DNA from: Escherichia phage Henu4_2
Direction: 5' to 3' (one strand)
Sequence record: PQ159479
Length of the DNA stretch: 50,260 nucleotides
Positions 5,685 to 50,228 of this stretch are shown here, piece after piece. Position 1 is the first letter of the stretch. Each line of letters begins with the position of its first letter. The notes beneath the pieces are model-generated. The model was not told the DNA's origin, searched no databases, and saw only the letters and a program-made list of their open reading frames with translations. Position numbers and translations under genes: made by a program.

Positions 5685-6182
5685 ATGATCGCTAAAAATG
5701 ACCTTTGCAACCTGTTAACGGCTGGTAATGATTATCAGGTTTTGAATAGCACAAAAGACCGTTATTTTATTGAGTGTGACAATGGGGATCGCATGTGGCT
5801 TAAAAAAGGCTTTTTCGAAAGTGAGCATCTATGCAATGCAAAGCGAATCGCAGATGAAGCAAGCGCATTAGCAGAGCGTGAACGAATTCGCGATATAGTA
5901 GCGGAGCAGGTTAGAAATTCATGTTTGCCTGGTGGCGATATCTTCAAATCAATGCGCGGTGAAATGACGGTTGGAATTCAAGATCGCGTAATTGAAAAAT
6001 CAGTTGATCCTGTAATTGAGAATGCGCGATTCAATGCGTTGATTAACTCAGAGACTAACGAATACATTAAAGTGTTAGAGCAACTGCGTGAAGTGCTGCG
6101 AGTGCCGGAAGGTGAAAATATTGTCACTCATGCAAAAGTTGTAAGAGCGTTGGCTGATGCGCTGATTGGTCTGCAAAAATAG
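5685..6182 (+). CDS. hypothetical protein
   Basis: 165-aa ORF from ATG 5685 with RBS AAGGAGAG; stop TAG inside motif copy 7. Confidence 0.5.
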   Translation: MIAKNDLCNLLTAGNDYQVLNSTKDRYFIECDNGDRMWLKKGFFESEHLCNAKRIADEASALAERERIRDIVAEQVRNSCLPGGDIFKSMRGEMTVGIQDRVIEKSVDPVIENARFNALINSETNEYIKVLEQLREVLRVPEGENIVTHAKVVRALADALIGLQK

Positions 6183-6222
6183 CACTTTTTGTTAAAACTT
6201 CCGCGAGGGCATTTGTTAAAGT
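6179..6222 (+). promoter_or_regulatory. conserved early element copy 7 (TGtTAAAGT)
   Basis: ATAGCACTTTTTGTTAAAA; TAAAGT 22 nt after TTGTTA; weak GAGG/CCTC stem. Confidence 0.45.
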
Positions 6223-6256
6223 ATCCTCATTGAAGCGAAACACGGAGATTTAGGAA

Positions 6257-6466
6257 ATGGCTGTATACACTGGCAAAATGTTTGAAAGCGAAAACCCGAT
6301 TTACGGCGGCACTTATGAGCTAATCATTGATGAAGATCGTGTAATCCTAGCTGACGACGATAACCAGGAATATTACGAAGTAGAAGCCGATAAATGGGAT
6401 AACGACGTTATGTTTCTTGTTGATAATAGCCGAATCAAGTTTTATGCAGTGGAGGAAGAAGAATGA
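6257..6466 (+). CDS. hypothetical acidic protein
   Basis: 69-aa ORF, RBS GGAGATTTAGGAA. Confidence 0.45.
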   Translation: MAVYTGKMFESENPIYGGTYELIIDEDRVILADDDNQEYYEVEADKWDNDVMFLVDNSRIKFYAVEEEE

Positions 6467-24543: not shown

Positions 24544-27500
24544 ATGATCAAAAATATGATAACTGGCAGTAAGGGCGGTTCTTCAAAGCCTCATACACCT
24601 GTTGAAATGGAAGATAACCTAATTTCAATTAACAGGATCAGAATTCTTTTAGCCGTTTCTGATGGTGAAGTTGATCCAGACTTTTCATTGAAAGATTTAT
24701 ATTTTGATGACGTTCCGGTTATGAATCAGGATGGTTCACTAAACTTTCAGAATGTTAAAGCAGAATTCAGACCAGGGACGCAAACTCAGGATTATATTCA
24801 GGGGTTTACTGATACAGCCAGCGAAATTACAGTTGCTCGAGATCTGACAGCCGCAACACCTTATATTATTTCTGTTACCAACAAAAACCTTTCTGCGATC
24901 CGTATTAAAATTTTAATGCCTCGCGGGGTTACTCAGGAAGATAACGGAGATCTAACAGGTGTTCGCGTTGAATATGCTGTTGATATGGCTGTTGATGGTG
25001 CTGAATATAAAGAGGTTTTGCATGATGTAATTGAAGGTAAAACAATGAGCGGTTACGACAGAAGCCGCCGAATTGATTTACCTGTTTTCAATGATCGTGT
25101 TTTATTGCGCGTACGTCGCCTGACAGATAGCACGTCAGCAAGGGTGACGGATCTGATTAAAATGCAAAGCTATGCGGAAATTGTAGACGCTAAATTTCGT
25201 TACCCCCTGACTGGTTTAGTATATGTTGAGTTTGACAGCGAATTATTCCCTAATGCGTTGCCGAATATCAGCATTAAGAAAAAATGGAAAATCATTAATG
25301 TTCCATCAAATTATGATCCTATTTCACGCACTTACTCAGGGTCATGGGATGGAACCTGGAAAAAGGCATGGAGTAATAACCCTGCTTTTGTTCTGTATGA
25401 TTTGATTACCAATCAGCGTTACGGACTCGATCAAAGAGAGTTAGGCATAGCGCTTGATAAATGGAGCATTTACGAATGTGCGCAGTATTGCGATCAGATG
25501 GTTCCAGACGGTAAAGGCGGAACAGAGCCGCGTTATCTTTGCGATGTTGTGATCCAGAGCCAGGTAGAAGCGTATCAGCTTGTGCGTGATATTTGTTCAA
25601 TATTCCGTGGCATGAGCTTTTGGAATGGTGAGAGCCTTTCAATCGTGATCGATAAGCCTCGCGATGCGTCATACATCTTTACTAATGACAACGTGGTTAA
25701 CGGCGATTTCAGCTACACGTTTGCCAGCGAGAAAAGCATGTACACGCAATGCAACGTGACTTTCGACGACGAACAAAACATGTATCAACAGGATGTTGAG
25801 GGAGTTTTCGAAACGGAGGCGGCGTTACGATTTGGATATAACAGCACGTCAATTACTGCGATTGGATGCACACGACGCAGCGAAGCCAACCGCCGTGGAC
25901 GCTGGATTTTAAAAACTAACGTCAAGAGCACAACGGTAAACTTTGCTACAGGTCTGGAAGGTATGATCCCAACCGTAGGCGATGTGATTGTTGTATCGGA
26001 TAACTTCTGGTCAAGTGCTCTAACGCTGAATCTATCAGGTCGCGTGATGGAGGTTAGCGGGTTGCAGGTGTTCACGCCGTTTAAGGTTGACGCAAGAGCA
26101 GGTGATCGCATTCTGGTAAATAAGCCAGATGGTAAGCCAGTTGGTCGAACCATTGCGCGTGTAAGTGATGACGGTAAAACGCTAACGCTAAACACGACAT
26201 TTGGCTTTGACGTTCAGCCGGATACCATTTTTGCAATTGAGCGAACGGATATTGCACAGCAACGATATGTTGTAACCGGAATCACTAAGGGTGACGGTGA
26301 TGAAGAATTTACCTACAACATAACGGCTGTTGAATACGATCCTAACAAATACGATGAAATTGATTATGGCGTAAACATTGATGACCGTCCGACTTCAATC
26401 GTGCAGCCTGACATTTTGCCAGCACCGCAAAACGTCAAGATCGAATCTTATTCGCGAGTTGTTCAGGGTGCGAGCGTGGAAACAATGCACGTTTCATGGG
26501 ATAAGGTTGAATATGCAAGCCTTTATGAAATGCAGTGGAGAAAAGACAATGGCAACTGGAACAACACGCCGCGCACAGCCAACAAGGAAACGGAAGTTGA
26601 AGGAATTTACGCCGGAAACTATCACGTAAGGGTTAGATCTGTTGCGGCGAATGGTTCAGCGTCTGGATGGTCAGCCATTGTAAGCGCCGGACTAACTGGC
26701 AAGGTTGGCGAACCGGAAAGGCCAATTAACCTTACTGCGTCTGACAATGAAGTTTTCGGAATTCGCGTAAAATGGGGTATGCCAGAAGGAAGCGGAGACA
26801 CTGCATATATTGAGTTGCATCAAGCGCCGAACGGTGCTGATGGTCATCCTATCGTTGATGAAGCAACGCTCTTAACGCTGATACCGTTCCCGCAATATGA
26901 GTATTGGCATTCAATACTGCCAGCGGGTCATGTTGTCTGGTACAAGGCAAGAGCAGTTGACAAAATCGGTAACGTTTCTGATTGGACTGATTTTGTGCGC
27001 GGCATGGCTTCCGACGATACAAGCATTATCACGGATCATATTAAGGTCGATATTGAAAATTCTGATGGCTATAAGTGGTTGCAGGAAAACGCGATAAAGG
27101 CAAATGATAAGATCCACAGCACAGCGGAATCAGTGATTGAAAACGCATTAGCGAATGATAAAGATGTTCGACGTATGCGAGTTGAAAACGGCAAGCGCAA
27201 AGCGGAGTTCTTGCAATCGCTGAAACTCATTGCAGACGAAACAGAAGCAAGGGTAACGCAGGTCACTCAAATGAGTGCGCAATTTGACGAGAAATTAACG
27301 GCTCAAAATAGCGAATTGAGAGAGGTAATTGCTAACAGCACTGAAACCATTAGCCAAAGGATTGATCAGCTTACAGCTACGTTTGAGAGCGAAATTGATG
27401 GTGTTAAGCAGGATATCAAAGCACAGATAACTGATGTTAACCAGGCAATCACCAATGAAGCGGAAGCGCGAGCGTCAGCGGATAGGGCGTTATCAACTCA

Positions 27501-28320
27501 AATTGGTGATACCCAATCAGCGGTTAACCAGAAACTTGATTCATGGGTTAACGGTACAAGCGTTGGTGCGATGTACGGCGTTAAGTTGGGGATCAGGTAT
27601 AACGGGCAGGAATATAGCGCAGGTATGGCGCTTTCTCTTGTCGCTGATGGTGGCGGAGTTAAATCACAATTCCTGTTTGATGCTGGACGATTTGCGATCA
27701 TCAATAATGCTCAAAGCGGAGCCTTTACATTGCCGTTTGTTGTTGAAAATAATCAGGTGTTTATCAATAGCTTACTTGTTAAAAATGGTTCTATTGGCAA
27801 TGCACAGATTGCTAACTTCATCAACTCTAACAACTGGCAGAGCGGGGTTGCAGGATGGGCTATTAACAAAGATGGTTACGCAGAATTTAACCAGGTAACT
27901 GTAAGGGGTGGCGTTTACGCATCATATGGTTCATTCACCGGAAGCGTTTACGCGCAAGATGGTTGGTTTAGGGGTACTGTTTACGCTGAAAAAATTGAGG
28001 GTGACGTTGCAAAGGCTGTTGTTCTTCCGTTTAACGGATCGATTCACATTCCGGCGGTTAACTACAACAGACATCTTGTGATCCCTTATGTTGGTATTCA
28101 TGGGTACACATATTCAGGTGGTACATGGGGCGGCGGCACTGTTTGGGTTGATTCAACATATGGCGGTCGCCTTGCTAACGTTCGGGCAACTGCAATGCAT
28201 GGCGGATCAAGTGGCTATGTTCTGTTGCCAGCAGGTAACGCAACTACGCTTTCATATGGTGGAGATCTAAACCACGCAAACGCAGTACCGATCTTAACAG
28301 TTCTGCTATTCAAAGCATAA
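24544..28320 (+). CDS. tail tip / central fibre host-specificity protein (lambda gpJ-like)
   Basis: 1258 aa following M-L-K-I; conserved J-family architecture. Confidence 0.9.
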   Translation: MIKNMITGSKGGSSKPHTPVEMEDNLISINRIRILLAVSDGEVDPDFSLKDLYFDDVPVMNQDGSLNFQNVKAEFRPGTQTQDYIQGFTDTASEITVARDLTAATPYIISVTNKNLSAIRIKILMPRGVTQEDNGDLTGVRVEYAVDMAVDGAEYKEVLHDVIEGKTMSGYDRSRRIDLPVFNDRVLLRVRRLTDSTSARVTDLIKMQSYAEIVDAKFRYPLTGLVYVEFDSELFPNALPNISIKKKWKIINVPSNYDPISRTYSGSWDGTWKKAWSNNPAFVLYDLITNQRYGLDQRELGIALDKWSIYECAQYCDQMVPDGKGGTEPRYLCDVVIQSQVEAYQLVRDICSIFRGMSFWNGESLSIVIDKPRDASYIFTNDNVVNGDFSYTFASEKSMYTQCNVTFDDEQNMYQQDVEGVFETEAALRFGYNSTSITAIGCTRRSEANRRGRWILKTNVKSTTVNFATGLEGMIPTVGDVIVVSDNFWSSALTLNLSGRVMEVSGLQVFTPFKVDARAGDRILVNKPDGKPVGRTIARVSDDGKTLTLNTTFGFDVQPDTIFAIERTDIAQQRYVVTGITKGDGDEEFTYNITAVEYDPNKYDEIDYGVNIDDRPTSIVQPDILPAPQNVKIESYSRVVQGASVETMHVSWDKVEYASLYEMQWRKDNGNWNNTPRTANKETEVEGIYAGNYHVRVRSVAANGSASGWSAIVSAGLTGKVGEPERPINLTASDNEVFGIRVKWGMPEGSGDTAYIELHQAPNGADGHPIVDEATLLTLIPFPQYEYWHSILPAGHVVWYKARAVDKIGNVSDWTDFVRGMASDDTSIITDHIKVDIENSDGYKWLQENAIKANDKIHSTAESVIENALANDKDVRRMRVENGKRKAEFLQSLKLIADETEARVTQVTQMSAQFDEKLTAQNSELREVIANSTETISQRIDQLTATFESEIDGVKQDIKAQITDVNQAITNEAEARASADRALSTQIGDTQSAVNQKLDSWVNGTSVGAMYGVKLGIRYNGQEYSAGMALSLVADGGGVKSQFLFDAGRFAIINNAQSGAFTLPFVVENNQVFINSLLVKNGSIGNAQIANFINSNNWQSGVAGWAINKDGYAEFNQVTVRGGVYASYGSFTGSVYAQDGWFRGTVYAEKIEGDVAKAVVLPFNGSIHIPAVNYNRHLVIPYVGIHGYTYSGGTWGGGTVWVDSTYGGRLANVRATAMHGGSSGYVLLPAGNATTLSYGGDLNHANAVPILTVLLFKA

Positions 28321-35846: not shown

Positions 35847-37820
35847 ATGATTCCTAACATTGAAAAGCAGATTGCAGATCTTGGAGAGGAAAGGATTAAG
35901 GCAATACAGAAGCGTTTCACGGTTGGTGAGATTGTCCCGTATGAATACCAATGCGTTGCTTACGCTGAAATTGCAAAGCGCTTGAGTAAGTATGTTGATC
36001 CGTTTTTCGTAAAAGCGGCGGTATCGGCAGGTAAAACAATCATCTTTGCTATGGTTGCGGCTCAGTGCCGTAAAATGGGGTTGAAAGCGTTATTTCTGGC
36101 GCGTCAATCTGAAATTGTGGATCAGGATTCAAAAGAGATTAGCGCCTTTGGTGTTCCGAATTCCGTTTATTGCGCTGGCCTGAATACCAAAAGCGCTTAT
36201 TTCCCGATTGTTGTCGGATCGGAAGGCACTGTAATTGGTGGATTGAATAAAGCGTTGGGTGATTACGTCCCACAGGTTTTAGGTATAGATGAATGCCATC
36301 AAGTAAACTGGAATGACATTGTGGAAGCCGAGGAAAACGGCGAAAGCATAGAGCAAATGATGACTCCGAAAGGTGAACCAGTTGAAGGGCATCCGTTGCT
36401 GATTGGTTCAGGCCGCGCACAATACACCATTATCATTGCAGAAATGCGCCGCCGTTGCCTTGAGACTTACGGTCATCAGTTGCGCATATTTGGAATGACA
36501 GGATCGGAATATCGCGGAATTGAGCCGATACTTGTCGAAGATAAAAGAATTCCTGGGTTTTGGCGTGAGCAGATCACAAACATTGATACTGATTACTTGG
36601 TTAAATTTGGTTCAGTTGTTCCCACTTATTTTGGCAATGTTGGTGATTTGGGTTATGACTTATCAGAATTTACGCCAGTACATGAATTTGGCGTTGCTGA
36701 TTATGACCAGAAGCAATTAAAGGCAATGAGTGACAAGATTCACAAATCAGGAACCATGACGCAGAAAATAATGCAGATGGTTCATGAGGTGATGAAAAAC
36801 CGCTTGTGCGCTCTTGTTACTTGCGCTGACGAAAGGCACTGCAAAGAGGCGGCGGCGGCGCTTCCTCCTGGCACGAAATATCACATTATCACCGGAAAAA
36901 CTGGAGAGAAACAGCGGCGCTTATGGCTTGAGGATGCCTATGAAGGGCGCGTGAAATACATATTCCAGGTTCAAGCGCTAACAACTGGAGTGAACGTTCC
37001 GCCGTGGGATACTTCTGTTATTTTGCGTAAGATCGGAAGCCTGACGCTATTAACTCAGCTTTTGGGGCGCGGTATGCGTCAATTAAAAACTTACCATAAA
37101 GAAGTATTGGGAATGCACAAAACGGATCACCTTGTTTTGGATTTTTCCGGCACGATGTTTGAAATGGGTAATTTGTATTTCGATCCGATGTTAGAGCAAG
37201 CGCAATTCCAGTTGCGTAAATCACAGGATAAAGATCCGAAATATTGCCCGATTTGCGGCACAGAAAATTCATTCTATGCTCGCCGTTGCATTAATGAAGA
37301 TGAAAACGGAAATCGTTGTGAGCACTTTTGGACTTTTCAAACGTGTGAGGATCAGATTGATGACCGCACAAAGAAAATAACGGTAAAAGGTTGTGGTGCT
37401 AAAAATGACGTTGCGGCGCGTGTATGCCGTTGCTGTAATGTTCAGTTACGCGATCCAAATGATAACTTATCCGGCAAGATGTACCGTAAAAACGATTGGT
37501 GCGACGTGTTAGATTTTAATGTGACGCTGACAAAAAACCAGGCTGGGGTAATATTCTGCTACACGTTGCGTGATAGTGGCGGCGTAGAATTCAGGGCATA
37601 CGAAAAATATTTCCCTGAATCAGAACACAAGATATGTAAAACGCTTTGGACAAAGGCGGTTAGAACACACGTTATAGATCGCCAGGCCGCAAACTTTATG
37701 ATCACTTGCAGAAATGCAATTAAGATCATGAGTTATGCTGGGCAAATATTGCCACCAAAACGTGTTACCCATCGCAAGAACACAAAGAAAGAAGATTTGA
37801 TCGCACAGAAGGAGTTTTAA
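35847..37820 (+). CDS. superfamily II DEAH-type helicase with C-terminal zinc-ribbon region
   Basis: Walker A AAVSAGKT, motif II GIDECHQ; C-terminal CPICGT...C..C cluster. Confidence 0.85.
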   Translation: MIPNIEKQIADLGEERIKAIQKRFTVGEIVPYEYQCVAYAEIAKRLSKYVDPFFVKAAVSAGKTIIFAMVAAQCRKMGLKALFLARQSEIVDQDSKEISAFGVPNSVYCAGLNTKSAYFPIVVGSEGTVIGGLNKALGDYVPQVLGIDECHQVNWNDIVEAEENGESIEQMMTPKGEPVEGHPLLIGSGRAQYTIIIAEMRRRCLETYGHQLRIFGMTGSEYRGIEPILVEDKRIPGFWREQITNIDTDYLVKFGSVVPTYFGNVGDLGYDLSEFTPVHEFGVADYDQKQLKAMSDKIHKSGTMTQKIMQMVHEVMKNRLCALVTCADERHCKEAAAALPPGTKYHIITGKTGEKQRRLWLEDAYEGRVKYIFQVQALTTGVNVPPWDTSVILRKIGSLTLLTQLLGRGMRQLKTYHKEVLGMHKTDHLVLDFSGTMFEMGNLYFDPMLEQAQFQLRKSQDKDPKYCPICGTENSFYARRCINEDENGNRCEHFWTFQTCEDQIDDRTKKITVKGCGAKNDVAARVCRCCNVQLRDPNDNLSGKMYRKNDWCDVLDFNVTLTKNQAGVIFCYTLRDSGGVEFRAYEKYFPESEHKICKTLWTKAVRTHVIDRQAANFMITCRNAIKIMSYAGQILPPKRVTHRKNTKKEDLIAQKEF

Positions 37821-37822
37821 AT

Positions 37823-38230
37823 ATGGTTACTGACAAAGGCGATTATCTGGAGTATTACAACAAATCAGATCCAGACGATAGGAAGGAGGAAGCGCACCAG
37901 GTTGATTCTTATTCATGGCTAACATATGAGTTTACAATGTGGCTTGTTTGGCACACTAAAAACGAGGGGAAGAAAACCATAGGCACAGCCGTAAAGGATC
38001 AGCAAGCGGGTGTGAAAAAGGGAGTTAGCGACATTCTAATTCTGACTGGTTTTATTGGCTGCAAGTATTCATTTATAGCCATTGAGCTTAAACGCGCCAA
38101 CAAGAAAGGCACGAAAGTAAGCCAGGAGCAAAAGGAATTCTTACGACGCGTTAGGGAATGCGGAGGATTTGCCGCCGTATGCTATGGCGTAGAGCAAGTA
38201 AAATTGGCTATCGCAGACGCTACAAAATAG
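37823..38230 (+). CDS. VRR-NUC domain nuclease
   Basis: GVSDILIL...IAIELKRANKKGTKVSQEQKEF matches the VRR-NUC D..E.K and SxEQ pattern. Confidence 0.75.
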   Translation: MVTDKGDYLEYYNKSDPDDRKEEAHQVDSYSWLTYEFTMWLVWHTKNEGKKTIGTAVKDQQAGVKKGVSDILILTGFIGCKYSFIAIELKRANKKGTKVSQEQKEFLRRVRECGGFAAVCYGVEQVKLAIADATK

Positions 38231-38270
38231 CACTTTTTGTTAAAACAGGCGCAACGGAATGCGCCATAAT
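38226..38270 (+). promoter_or_regulatory. conserved early element copy 10 (stem GGCGC/GCGCC, CATAAT)
   Basis: ATAGCACTTTTTGTTAAAA; CATAAT 22 nt after TTGTTA; AACGAAACGGAG leader. Confidence 0.5.
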
Positions 38271-38301
38271 GCACCCATCAGAACGAAACGGAGAATTAAC
38301 C

Positions 38302-38580
38302 ATGAAAAAGATGTTATCAGTAGTTGCTTTATCACTTGCCCTTGTCGGTTGCATGGATAAACCAAAAACATATATTTGCGGAAATGAAGCGTTTGAGGTT
38401 GCAAGCGACTATATGAAAGTTGTAAGCGGTCCGAGCACAGGCGTTGTAATGGATAATATCAGCAAAAATCAATATAAGCTGTTTACGCCAATTGGGACGG
38501 CTTATTACACTGTTAACGATAACACCATTGATATTAAAGTTGGCGTTTATCAGCACACTCTAACTTGCGAGGTAAAATAA
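38302..38580 (+). CDS. outer-membrane lipoprotein (superinfection-exclusion candidate)
   Basis: lipoprotein signal MKKMLSVVALSLALVGC (lipobox LVGC); 92 aa. Confidence 0.6.
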   Translation: MKKMLSVVALSLALVGCMDKPKTYICGNEAFEVASDYMKVVSGPSTGVVMDNISKNQYKLFTPIGTAYYTVNDNTIDIKVGVYQHTLTCEVK

Positions 38581-38581
38581 A

Positions 38582-39319
38582 ATGGCTAAGGATTTTCAGG
38601 ACAAAGCAACCATTGATACTTTTGAGCCGGAAATGGATTTTCATGAATTGCAACACGGAAGATATTCAGATATTGCGCTGCGTTCAGGTGGTCATTATCA
38701 GCCAGTTAGAGAAAACACGTTTTTGAAGGTTAGCGGCAACCGTTATGCAGGAAGTAAAACGCCGGACGTTGTGCGCGATTTGTGGGAAACGCCAGATGAA
38801 ATTGTTGATTATCTTGCTGAACGTTACGGCAAATATGATCTTGATGCAGCCGCAACAGAAGATAATAAAAAATGCGATAAGTTTTACAGCAAAGAAACAA
38901 ACTGTTTAAAGCGTTGGTGGGGTAGCAATAAGCATGTTTGGCTTAATCCGCCATACAGCAATCCAGATCCGTTTGTGTTAAAAGCAATTGAGCAGATGGA
39001 ACACGGAAACCAGATTGATATTTTACTTCCGGCTGACAACTCAACCGCATGGTTTAGCGATGCACAAAAACACGCGGCGGAAATTATCTGGATCACTGGC
39101 GAAACATGGGAAGAAGAAGGAAAACAATATTCCCGCACTGGTCGAGTGTCGTTTATTTCTGGCATGACAGGTGAGCAAGTTAGTGGAAACAATAAAGGAA
39201 GCGTGATTTTTATCATGCGCCAACTGAAAGAAGGTGAGCAACAACAAACTCATTATGTGCCAATTAGTGAAATTTGCCCTTCTGTTAAGAACAAACGCAC
39301 AAAAGCGCGGAGTATTTAA
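38582..39319 (+). CDS. dam: DNA N6-adenine methyltransferase (Dam-like)
   Basis: catalytic NPPY motif in WLNPPYSNP. Confidence 0.8.
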   Translation: MAKDFQDKATIDTFEPEMDFHELQHGRYSDIALRSGGHYQPVRENTFLKVSGNRYAGSKTPDVVRDLWETPDEIVDYLAERYGKYDLDAAATEDNKKCDKFYSKETNCLKRWWGSNKHVWLNPPYSNPDPFVLKAIEQMEHGNQIDILLPADNSTAWFSDAQKHAAEIIWITGETWEEEGKQYSRTGRVSFISGMTGEQVSGNNKGSVIFIMRQLKEGEQQQTHYVPISEICPSVKNKRTKARSI

Positions 39320-39321
39320 AG

Positions 39322-39588
39322 ATGGAAAAGATTGAAACTATTGTTGAAAATGGCGTTGAATATCGACGCGTTGAATTAACTGAACGTGGTTTATGGTTGC
39401 TTTATCGCGCTATGGTGTGCGATGCGATAGAAAAGGCGAATGAAACTGAAACAGTAGGATCTGATTTGTGGATGTTCACAGATGTGCTTGATATGAGTTT
39501 TGATGAAACAAAAGAGCTTGTATTGAGCAAGTGGGAAGAAAAGATAAATCAAGATCTAAAAGAATTTTTAGCAGATCCGAATAAATAG
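39322..39588 (+). CDS. hypothetical protein
   Basis: 88-aa ORF, stop inside motif copy 11. Confidence 0.45.
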   Translation: MEKIETIVENGVEYRRVELTERGLWLLYRAMVCDAIEKANETETVGSDLWMFTDVLDMSFDETKELVLSKWEEKINQDLKEFLADPNK

Positions 39589-41257: not shown

Positions 41258-41369
41258 TTAAATTATCACATAAAAAGGCTGGCTAAATGCTGGCCTTTTT
41301 TTGTTTTTGTCGTTAACATAATCAGACTGTTTTTTGATATTGACTTTTTAATTTTTAAGGGATCTAGTT

Positions 41370-41585: not shown

Positions 41586-41597
41586 GGAGTGAATTTA

Positions 41598-42092
41598 ATG
41601 GCTATTAAAAAGACAATAGCCGCTACCATAACGGGCGCGGCTTTAATGATGGCATCGCCCTTGATTGAAGAAATTGAGGGCGTGAGGTATAAACCTTACA
41701 AGGATATTGCAGGAATCTGGACGGTATGCCACGGAATCACAGGAAAGGATGTGATATTAGGAAAGGAATATACCAGGCGAGAATGTGACGCGCTACTTGC
41801 AAAGCATATGAAAGTTGCGGCTGACGCTGTTGATAAAGCGGTTAAGGTTGATATTCCTATTTCTATGCGAGCGGCTTTGTACTCATTCACATTCAACGCC
41901 GGAACAGGTGCATTCAGTAAATCAACCATGTTGAAGAAGATCAACAATGGTGATCTGTATGGTGGTTGTGGCGAGCTTTGGAACTGGACATATTACCGGA
42001 ACCCGAAAACGGGAAAAAAGGAAAAATCAAAGGGATTGAAGAATCGCCGCGCTGTTGAATATAAATATTGTGTAATGGATCTGAATAAATGA
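41598..42092 (+). CDS. endolysin, GH24 lysozyme with putative N-terminal SAR domain
   Basis: catalytic E-x8-D-x5-T in [19 protein letters not shown]; weakly hydrophobic Gly/Ala-rich N-terminus. Confidence 0.85.
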
Positions 42093-42478
42093 AAAGAAAA
42101 TTACTGGCTATTATGATGTGCATTGCTCTTTCTGGTTGTTCAGCTTCAAGCGTTTTACCTGGTCTGATTGGTAGCAAGCCTGATATAACGGCACAGGCTG
42201 GAGCGGAGAATGTGAAACAGACTGTTGGTGTGACCGCAAAGCAGGATACATCAAGCAAGCAGGAAACAACATTCAAAGAATCGGCAGTTGGTCAGGTTGA
42301 CACGTCAAATAAAAAGCAGGTGAGCACCTCAAGCATTAAGGCCGATAACATCACGGCGGAAAGAATAGAAATTCGCAACAATGACGGTCTTAACGTTCCG
42401 GCAATCGCAATGGGTATATTAATGTTTATTGCTGGTATGCTGGCAGGTTGGACACTAAAACGTAATAAGGCGGCATAA
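42089..42478 (+). CDS. unimolecular spanin (lipoprotein with C-terminal TM)
   Basis: lipobox LSGC at N-terminus plus C-terminal [17 protein letters not shown]; same architecture as T1 gp11. Confidence 0.7.
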
Positions 42479-50080: not shown

Positions 50081-50199
50081 AAATCGGCGTAGTTTTTGAA
50101 AACGCGCCGCAAAACATTGAAATCAAAGGCGATAAACACAAAAAGGCGTCTAAACAGAACAATATTCTGATTGTAGACATAAGAACAACAGAAAAAACT

Positions 50200-50228
50200 T
50201 TGACTATGCGCCAGCACATCAGCATAAT
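50200..50228 (+). promoter_or_regulatory. near-consensus sigma70 promoter (TTGACT-17-CATAAT) for gene 1
   Basis: TTGACT 50200-50205, CATAAT 50223-50228; ATCAAAACCAATCAGGAGAAAACCCT leader runs to the window end; ATG at position 1 on circularisation. Confidence 0.65.

Follow-up and report, generated by a model that had tools for sequence, protein, structure and literature searches.

A small lipoprotein gene in a variable slot between VRR-NUC and dam of Escherichia phage Henu4_2 is a candidate for a receptor-independent envelope function

What does a phage do with a small lipoprotein that lies outside its lysis cassette? The question is raised by Escherichia phage Henu4_2 (sequence record PQ159479), whose 50,260 nucleotides we refer to as the window. 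An open reading frame (ORF) at 38302..38580 on the + strand encodes a 92-amino-acid (aa) predicted lipoprotein between the genes for a VRR-NUC nuclease and a Dam-like methyltransferase. A first-pass annotation of the window had proposed superinfection exclusion of the kind known from Cor and Llp, lipoproteins that inactivate the phage's own receptor. The evidence strongly supports that this is a true accessory gene, carried by TLS-like, Henuseptimavirus, Webervirus, and Nouzillyvirus phages, and it directs the search for a function away from the receptor.

We first consider the gene product. The ORF begins with ATG, 8 nt after a ribosome-binding site (RBS; GGAG, 38290-38293, +), and the encoded protein, MKKMLSVVALSLALVGCMDKPKTYICGNEAFEVASDYMKVVSGPSTGVVMDNISKNQYKLFTPIGTAYYTVNDNTIDIKVGVYQHTLTCEVK, matches phrog_7420 over its full length (E = 1.1e-51, residues 1-92 of a 92-position profile). 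It is 91-100% identical to its Tlsvirus orthologues. Its counterparts TLS gp60 and Bas08_0036 are both annotated as hypothetical, and one UniProt family member is already labeled "Lipoprotein." TLS gp60 (AY308796.1, 38231-38653) is annotated as a protein of 140 aa that starts at an ATG inside VRR-NUC and reads through the direct repeat behind it; the conserved 92-aa product begins 48 codons after that start, and the extension is not conserved. The start of the 92-aa form is correct, because in relatives the upstream extension is broken by stop codons. We searched the literature and found no study of the function of this protein, and the TLS re-annotation paper does not discuss TLS gp60 as a lipoprotein.

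The N terminus reads MKK-MLSVVALSLA-LVGC, with a positive n-region (MKK), a hydrophobic core (LSVVALSLA), and a lipobox, L-V-G-C, at residues 14-17, which conforms to the pattern [LVI][ASTVI][GAS]C. The precursor thus splits as MKKMLSVVALSLALVGC, followed by MDKPK... from the tether on. The predicted signal peptide comprises residues 1-16 (38302..38349, +), with G16 and C17 invariant in the family, and the Pfam model LPAM_1 is matched by 9 of 24 members. From these signals we infer export by Sec and lipidation on Cys17, and the Met at +2 and Asp at +3 would direct Lol sorting to the outer membrane. In most members, +2 is M, S, G, N, or A, for which the outer membrane is likewise predicted. The proteins of Klebsiella phage RCIP0096 (2453-2719), P0037, and P0040 read GC-DNK, with Asp directly after the lipidated Cys.

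The mature lipoprotein, delimited by the lipobox and an AlphaFold2 model, would comprise 76 residues, Cys17-Lys92 (38350..38577, +). The model (m82a40ab7eaaf), built on an alignment of 24 sequences, has a predicted local distance difference test (pLDDT) score of 93-97 over residues 21-92 and of ~96 for the barrel. It places eight antiparallel strands in an up-and-down beta-barrel (residues 22-88) that follows the short tether MDKPK, with the invariant Cys26 on the first strand and the invariant Cys89 on the last, so that a Cys26-Cys89 disulfide is probable. A Foldseek search of the PDB returned nothing at E <= 1e-3, the sole compact match being PhiA with a TM-score of ~0.5, and a Foldseek search of predicted viral structures returned family members only.

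Homologues are confined to phages (Drexlerviridae) and form ~30 clusters at 90% identity; an exhaustive profile search found 12 representatives among 1.84 billion proteins. The protein is present in 233 phage records, 170 of which are Klebsiella phages, and the carriers that we examined belong to Tlsvirus, Henuseptimavirus, Webervirus, and Nouzillyvirus. Conservation spans phages of several host genera. Down to 29% identity, residues G16, C17, Y24, C26, G27, Y58, and C89 are invariant in 24 homologues, and the order VRR-NUC, lipoprotein, Dam is retained even in members at 29-45% identity. Pairwise ratios of nonsynonymous to synonymous substitution rates (dN/dS) are 0.18-0.38 for the lipoprotein gene, compared with 0.04-0.13 for neighboring genes. 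The gene is therefore under purifying selection, more relaxed than that on its neighbors. Two giant proteins from the exhaustive profile search, the LapA/RTX repeat adhesin P0035 (3231 aa) and the likewise repetitive P0041 (1256 aa), were rejected as artefacts because their scores were the sum of many weak stretches over repeats.

Does the lipoprotein go with a particular receptor? Henu4_2 itself is almost certainly TolC-specific, because the C terminus of its J-like tail-tip protein (24544..28320, +, 1258 aa) is nearly identical to that of the TolC phages Bas08 and TLS. The C-terminal extension of J, the probable TolC-binding module (27571..28320, +), makes up the last 249 residues and is 99.2% identical to Bas08 and 96.4% identical to TLS. 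TolC is the receptor of TLS and, as shown experimentally, of Bas08. The receptor-binding/exclusion locus found after gpJ in other Drexlerviridae is missing from all known TolC phages (PMC8594841). Inspection of the ORFs downstream of J revealed no such locus in the window. Around the lipoprotein gene (37800-39400), the window shares 98% identity with Escherichia phage vB_EcoS_011D2 and 92-97% with TLS, LL5, DanielBernoulli (Bas08), Stevie, YSP2, and other Tlsvirus phages (Drexlerviridae).

The lipoprotein, by comparison, is not restricted to TolC phages. It is 91-96% identical in the TolC phages TLS, LL5, Bas08, and U136B, and an 84% identical copy is present in the YncD phage IsaakIselin (Bas10, Henuseptimavirus), which has its own receptor-binding locus after gpJ; the TolC and YncD receptors of these named phages were determined experimentally. 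In Klebsiella Weberviruses, the copy is 64% identical and is accompanied by counterparts of ST32 and ST31, the receptor-binding genes of T1, but not by cor; this T1-type locus was seen in the examined Webervirus, Sweeny. Most of the TolC-type J extension is present in just 47 phage records, compared to the 233 with the lipoprotein. The reverse case is given by two contigs from IMG/VR in which gp47, gp48, and the J C terminus are 91-100% identical to those of Sweeny. Both have a 34-aa membrane peptide after VRR-NUC and no lipoprotein, and in one the VRR-NUC is 100% identical. With the same lipoprotein beside different receptors, and the same receptor module beside different cargo, the two are uncoupled in both directions.

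Comparison of the window with Bas10 suggests how this came about. Positions 38295-38594 form an island of 84-96% nucleotide identity with Bas10 (MZ501077.1, 30732-31010); on either side, in the helicase, VRR-NUC, and dam regions, identity is mostly ~56-78%. Synonymous divergence (dS) is 0.23 for the lipoprotein gene and > 2 for the flanking genes. A close island with low dS between divergent flanks points to recent lateral exchange of the cassette between a TolC lineage and a YncD lineage. The simpler view that the lipoprotein merely tracks phylogeny is partly true, as its identities parallel those of neighboring genes, but the Bas10 island shows lateral exchange too. In Bas10, we also noted bas10_0024 (6099-6431, -), a 110-aa protein with a cleavable Sec signal (cleavage between ...LNAMA and LNVN) and no lipobox, which may be the cognate exclusion protein of the Bas10 receptor-binding locus.

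We surveyed the slot that the gene occupies in 80 Drexlerviridae loci from IMG/VR (L015-L094), anchored on VRR-NUC; the gap examined runs from about +410 to +1460, counted in nt from where VRR-NUC starts. The 92-aa lipoprotein is present in 34 loci, and 22 loci have nothing in the slot (gap <= 100 bp). A 34-aa hydrophobic membrane peptide, MKNFLWVIASIGFGIVATGFGLWVITLAGHFKGF, fills it in 6 loci, a second, unrelated lipoprotein of 75-80 aa (phrog_4281) in 4, and membrane-anchored or secreted periplasmic proteins of ~100-160 aa in about 7; the remainder have a few cytoplasmic-looking ORFs. The secreted proteins are 103-120 aa long, and some of the membrane-anchored periplasmic proteins, of ~150 aa, precede small two-helix membrane proteins. 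Directly behind VRR-NUC, 67 of the 80 loci have the direct repeat described below. Based on these varied contents, the slot is a hypervariable hotspot for small, mostly envelope-targeted accessory genes that are swapped among close relatives.

Two of the alternative slot proteins were compared with known families. The phrog_4281 lipoprotein was considered as a Cor homologue and rejected: a full-length jackhmmer search gave 1e-18, but a search with the mature part only was negative, and the PHROG match to Cor spans residues 1-31 only. In locus L067 (2701-3012), the slot holds a 103-aa protein that is predicted to be Sec-secreted and non-lipidated, with a mature part that starts ...NYDCDYTF and ends ...NLQCEIYGA. 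Its termini, Y-x-C ... C-E-[IV], are as in the lipoprotein family, and hhalign detected no homology beyond YDC. This protein may be a soluble version of the same fold, comparable to PliC relative to MliC.

How is the gene likely to be expressed? The location between VRR-NUC and Dam given in the first-pass annotation is confirmed by the ORF, the lipobox LVGC, and Pfam matches of both neighbors: VRR-NUC, the upstream boundary of the slot (37823..38230, +), matches VRR_NUC at 1.4e-08, and the Dam-like N6-adenine methyltransferase (38582..39319, +) matches Dam at 6.8e-63. The gap between VRR-NUC and the lipoprotein gene is 71 bp and lies within an intergenic regulatory element (38228..38301, +) composed of a direct repeat, a hairpin, a -10-like box, and the RBS. 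The direct repeat, an 18-mer, TAGCACTTTTTGTTAAAA (38228-38245, +), begins the gap and overlaps the VRR-NUC stop codon. It is followed by the hairpin GGCGCA-ACGGAA-TGCGCC (38248-38265, +) and then by CATAATGCACNCATCA, a block common to four copies of the repeat. The -10-like CATAAT (38265-38270, +) falls inside the block CATAATGCACCCATCA, which is also found in three other repeat copies.

The window has 15 copies of TAGCACTTTTTGTTAAAA, compared to 0.18 expected by chance. The others are at 1193, 1603, 3611, 6180, 14627 (-), 29838, 35148 (-), 35770, 39586, 45321 (-), 47667 (-), 48571 (-), 49072 (-), and 49582 (-). Nearly all are in non-structural regions, they have the sense of the flanking genes where this was checked, and in the copies examined they overlap the stop codon of the preceding gene. 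Three aligned copies share an arrangement of repeat, hairpin with a variable stem sequence, and -10-like CATAAT. A 21-nt direct repeat, aaATAGCACnnnTTGnTAAAA, with 18 intergenic copies located ~76 nt before start codons, has been described in TLS, and the TAGCACTTTTTGTTAAAA element of the window is this same repeat (PMC11447400).

The gene had been described as expressed from its own early element. It does have its own copy of the intergenic direct repeat; however, the element is not a canonical sigma-70 promoter, as the 71-bp gap contains no such promoter (22 nt separate TTGTTA from CATAAT). Early expression, as judged from gene order, is plausible. The gap contains no sense-strand terminator, the hairpin and T-run reading as an intrinsic terminator on the antisense strand only. 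The best sigma-70-like promoter near any repeat copy, TTGACT-17 nt-CATAAT at 50199-50228, is at the right end of the window and points off it; it has the block CATAATGCACACATCA, as does the element of the lipoprotein gene.

Downstream, the TAA stop codon (38578..38580, +) is one base from the dam ATG at 38582, a spacing that suggests co-transcription with dam and possibly translational coupling. The next direct repeat, at 39586, follows the ORF after dam. Considering this repeat position together with the one-base spacing, the transcription unit is most likely lipoprotein, dam, and the ORF at 39322..39588. In T1, the same element lies between the VRR-NUC homologue and dam with no gene intervening, and therefore the lipoprotein gene of the window is placed between the element and dam.

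What, then, could the protein do? We tentatively favor an envelope accessory protein that gives a receptor-independent conversion of the envelope, most plausibly exclusion, while holding this at somewhat less than even confidence. Encoded in the cargo slot behind the direct repeat and before dam, the lipoprotein would presumably be co-transcribed with dam in the non-structural phase. After Sec export and lipidation on Cys17, the product would be passed by Lol to the outer membrane and reside in its inner leaflet. There, a compact eight-stranded barrel, probably closed by the Cys26-Cys89 disulfide, would be held ~5 residues from the membrane and could act as a periplasmic, stoichiometric binder or inhibitor of an envelope component common to E. 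coli, Salmonella, Citrobacter, Enterobacter, and Klebsiella. In this way, the infected cell would have its envelope converted, with exclusion of secondary infection at a receptor-independent step after adsorption as the most plausible outcome; the blocked step might be, for example, the incoming tail tip or DNA crossing the periplasm. In phages without Cor, the lipoprotein would be a functional substitute for Cor that does not use the Cor/Llp mode of action. T4 Imm and Sp, P22 SieA, and HK97 gp15 are receptor-independent exclusion proteins. As we envisage it, the lipoprotein resembles them as a small envelope accessory protein with a post-adsorption block; unlike the lipoprotein, with which they share no sequence or fold relation, they are mostly inner-membrane or soluble periplasmic proteins.

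An exclusion-type role is possible because the protein is a predicted outer membrane lipoprotein in a phage that lacks Cor, and because Cor and the lipoprotein are mutually exclusive. Among 60 Drexlerviridae loci from IMG/VR with the full 10 kb upstream, 26 have the lipoprotein and 34 lack it; a Cor homologue is found near J in none of the former and in 14 of the latter (Fisher p = 1e-4). T1 and damhaus (Hanrivervirus) both have Cor near J and an empty slot after VRR-NUC, with the direct repeat and the genes on both sides as in the window. RTP has rtp45 near J, and its VRR-NUC is followed by three small ORFs with no family member among them and no annotated dam. This exclusivity is suggestive of functional substitution. 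Thus, of the proposal of superinfection exclusion, the predicted outer membrane lipoprotein, its location outside the lysis cassette and behind its own repeat copy, the lack of Cor and of an exclusion locus after gpJ, and the exclusivity with Cor agree with our analysis, whereas receptor blocking as its mechanism is unsupported.

Several points weigh against our favored reading. The exclusivity with Cor is suggestive rather than proof because the test ignores kinship, and the anticorrelation could reflect FhuA-using versus other lineages; in addition, some Cor-less phages have an empty slot. Sharing a slot is no proof of a shared function, and the slot may be just a permissive insertion site. 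The family has no informative homologue, as searches of Pfam, PADLOC, and PDB sequences gave no informative match. The expression timing rests on gene order only. Finally, the Asp at +2 in RCIP0096 and P0037, which in E. coli signals inner membrane retention, predicts that location for them; based on these distant members, membrane localization may differ within the family and the outer membrane location may be non-essential.

A more specific version of this idea takes the VRR-NUC/Dam junction as a dedicated exchange site for small envelope-acting cassettes, with the lipoprotein as a new receptor-independent exclusion protein or periplasmic inhibitor that replaces Cor. It might replace Cor in phages that use TolC, YncD, and other non-FhuA receptors and, for instance, stop incoming siphophage tails from crossing the periplasm or inhibit a muralytic enzyme. 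We regard this full combination as possible though rather doubtful.

The strongest of the competing explanations is another form of envelope takeover or an anti-defense role, in which the protein would act not in exclusion but, for example, on an envelope-located defense or stress pathway, on vesiculation, or on outer membrane biogenesis. Rapid cassette turnover in an accessory hotspot and the presence of the protein in phages of several host genera would agree with this, as would a dN/dS above that of the neighboring genes. However, comparison with PHROG and PADLOC revealed no homology to known counter-defense or defense proteins (the PADLOC defense models matched neither the lipoprotein nor five alternative slot proteins), and this explanation offers no specific candidate target. 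We consider it unlikely.

Slightly less probable again is a membrane-tethered inhibitor of peptidoglycan hydrolases, analogous to MliC, PliC, PhiA, and Neisseria ACP. Such an inhibitor might buffer premature release of the phage's own signal-anchor-release (SAR) endolysin, neutralize the muralytic activity of an incoming tail, or guard infected cells against exogenous lysozyme; T4 Spackle, for comparison, neutralizes gp5. The analogy draws on the Foldseek search, with PhiA as the best compact PDB match, and on resemblances to MliC: a lipoprotein of ~75 residues with Cys near both barrel ends that starts Y-x-C. Some homologues also carry the depositor label "putative adhesin," which we take, as an assumption, to reflect ACP-like matches. 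Against this, no Foldseek match reaches the E-value threshold, and homology to MliC was rejected on three negative searches. None of the 24 members matches Pfam MliC (PF09864) even at E <= 10, the hhalign probability with E. coli MliC, 82% for the whole protein, is 0.9% (10 columns) for the mature part, and the family profile matched nothing among PDB sequences at E <= 10. The conserved inhibitory motifs of MliC, SxSGAxY and YxxxTKG, are not in the family alignment; the nearest string, G65-x-A67-x-Y69, is one strand closer to the C terminus than SGARY in MliC. T1, damhaus, and RTP lack the lipoprotein; the endolysin/spanin cassette annotated in T1 and RTP is of the type seen here.

The model proposed in the first-pass annotation, a Cor/Llp-type lipoprotein that disables the phage's own receptor (TolC) from the periplasmic side, has become improbable. 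In its favor, TolC projects far into the periplasm and would be reachable there, and the exclusion gene that usually follows gpJ is absent from TolC phages. Cor is missing from this phage, Cor and the lipoprotein never co-occur, and the conserved Cys pair of the lipoprotein recalls those of Cor and Llp. Like Cor (T1, phi80, N15, HK022) and Llp (T5), the lipoprotein is phage-encoded, and its lipobox signal peptide is followed by a short tether and a small, predicted beta-rich mature domain with a conserved Cys pair; Cor occurs in the same phage family. Cor and Llp are outer membrane lipoproteins made during infection that exclude FhuA-dependent phages.

These likenesses do not extend to the mature domain. 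The first-pass annotation had itself seen no sequence-level identity to Cor or Llp, and we agree, as all matches to Cor are lost once the signal peptide is removed. By PHROG, the match to phrog_1119 (6e-4) covers residues 1-37 only, namely the signal peptide and a short stretch after it, and by hhalign the probability with T1 Cor drops from 94%, over the signal peptide and first strand, to 0.25% without the signal peptide. A phmmer search with T1 Cor found nothing in the window, and neither Llp nor Cor is among the fold-search matches listed. Whereas the mature domains of Cor and Llp are ~58-61 aa, that of the lipoprotein is 75 aa and predicted to be an eight-stranded barrel. Linkage differs as well. 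T1 cor and RTP rtp45 adjoin the J locus and llp adjoins pb5 (PMC9586334), but the lipoprotein gene is not beside the receptor-binding gene: J ends at 28320 and the lipoprotein gene starts at 38302, a separation of 10 kb that is occupied by recombination, lateral tail fiber, primase, helicase, and nuclease genes.

Co-variation with the receptor is the third negative result for receptor blocking. Unlike Cor and Llp, the lipoprotein is common to phages with different receptors (TolC, YncD, T1-type locus), and the cargo changes while the receptor-binding module stays. The YncD phage Bas10 holds its recently exchanged, 84% identical copy alongside a receptor-binding locus of its own, most of the records are those of Klebsiella phages, with Sweeny carrying a T1-type locus, and records with the TolC-type J extension are far outnumbered by those with the lipoprotein. 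Mechanistically, Llp jams the plug of a TonB-dependent transporter (PMC9586334); TolC is not such a transporter and has no plug or TonB box, so Llp-like jamming has no obvious counterpart here. The family, already in the databases as hypothetical, is thus set apart from Cor and Llp by its sequence, predicted fold, linkage, and receptor dependence. That the gene is selfish or neutral cargo of no benefit to the phage is very improbable. Close relatives do without it, their slot being empty or otherwise filled, but the gene is under purifying selection, its lipobox and both Cys stay invariant in homologues with as little as 29% identity, 233 phage records from four or more genera retain it, and it has spread laterally as an intact cassette.

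A receptor-independent change of the envelope, if confirmed, would matter for phage cocktails, in which one phage could exclude another, and would extend the few exclusion strategies known from virulent siphophages by one more mechanism. The lipoprotein is carried both by Weberviruses, which are common candidates for Klebsiella phage therapy, and by TolC phages (TLS, U136B, Bas08), which are studied since resistance to them can re-sensitize bacteria to antibiotics. As a hotspot, the slot behind the direct repeat is compact and simple to locate, and its contents provide a candidate list for envelope-acting accessory functions. If the gene proves to have no phenotype, the outcome would be a corrected annotation of TLS gp60, in its start codon and its lipoprotein status.

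A lipobox scan of the entire window detected only this lipoprotein and the u-spanin of the lysis cassette (42089..42478, +), which was identified by the scan and by the annotation of the syntenic Bas08 gene and is separate from the lipoprotein feature. The protein is therefore the sole non-lysis lipoprotein of the phage. The lysis cassette, comprising holin, SAR endolysin (41589..42092), and u-spanin, begins ~3 kb downstream on the same strand and is preceded by a terminator-like site (41272-41300). Thus, the gene does lie outside the cassette, and "well away" from it, as first described, is true only in relative terms.

Among the records that matched this region, OR786094.1 (Streptococcus phage MBBL140), MG065636.1, and other "Campylobacter phage" records are 92-99% identical here to Tlsvirus/T1-like coliphages. 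The host labels Streptococcus and Campylobacter on such records are probably wrong, or the sequences are contaminants.

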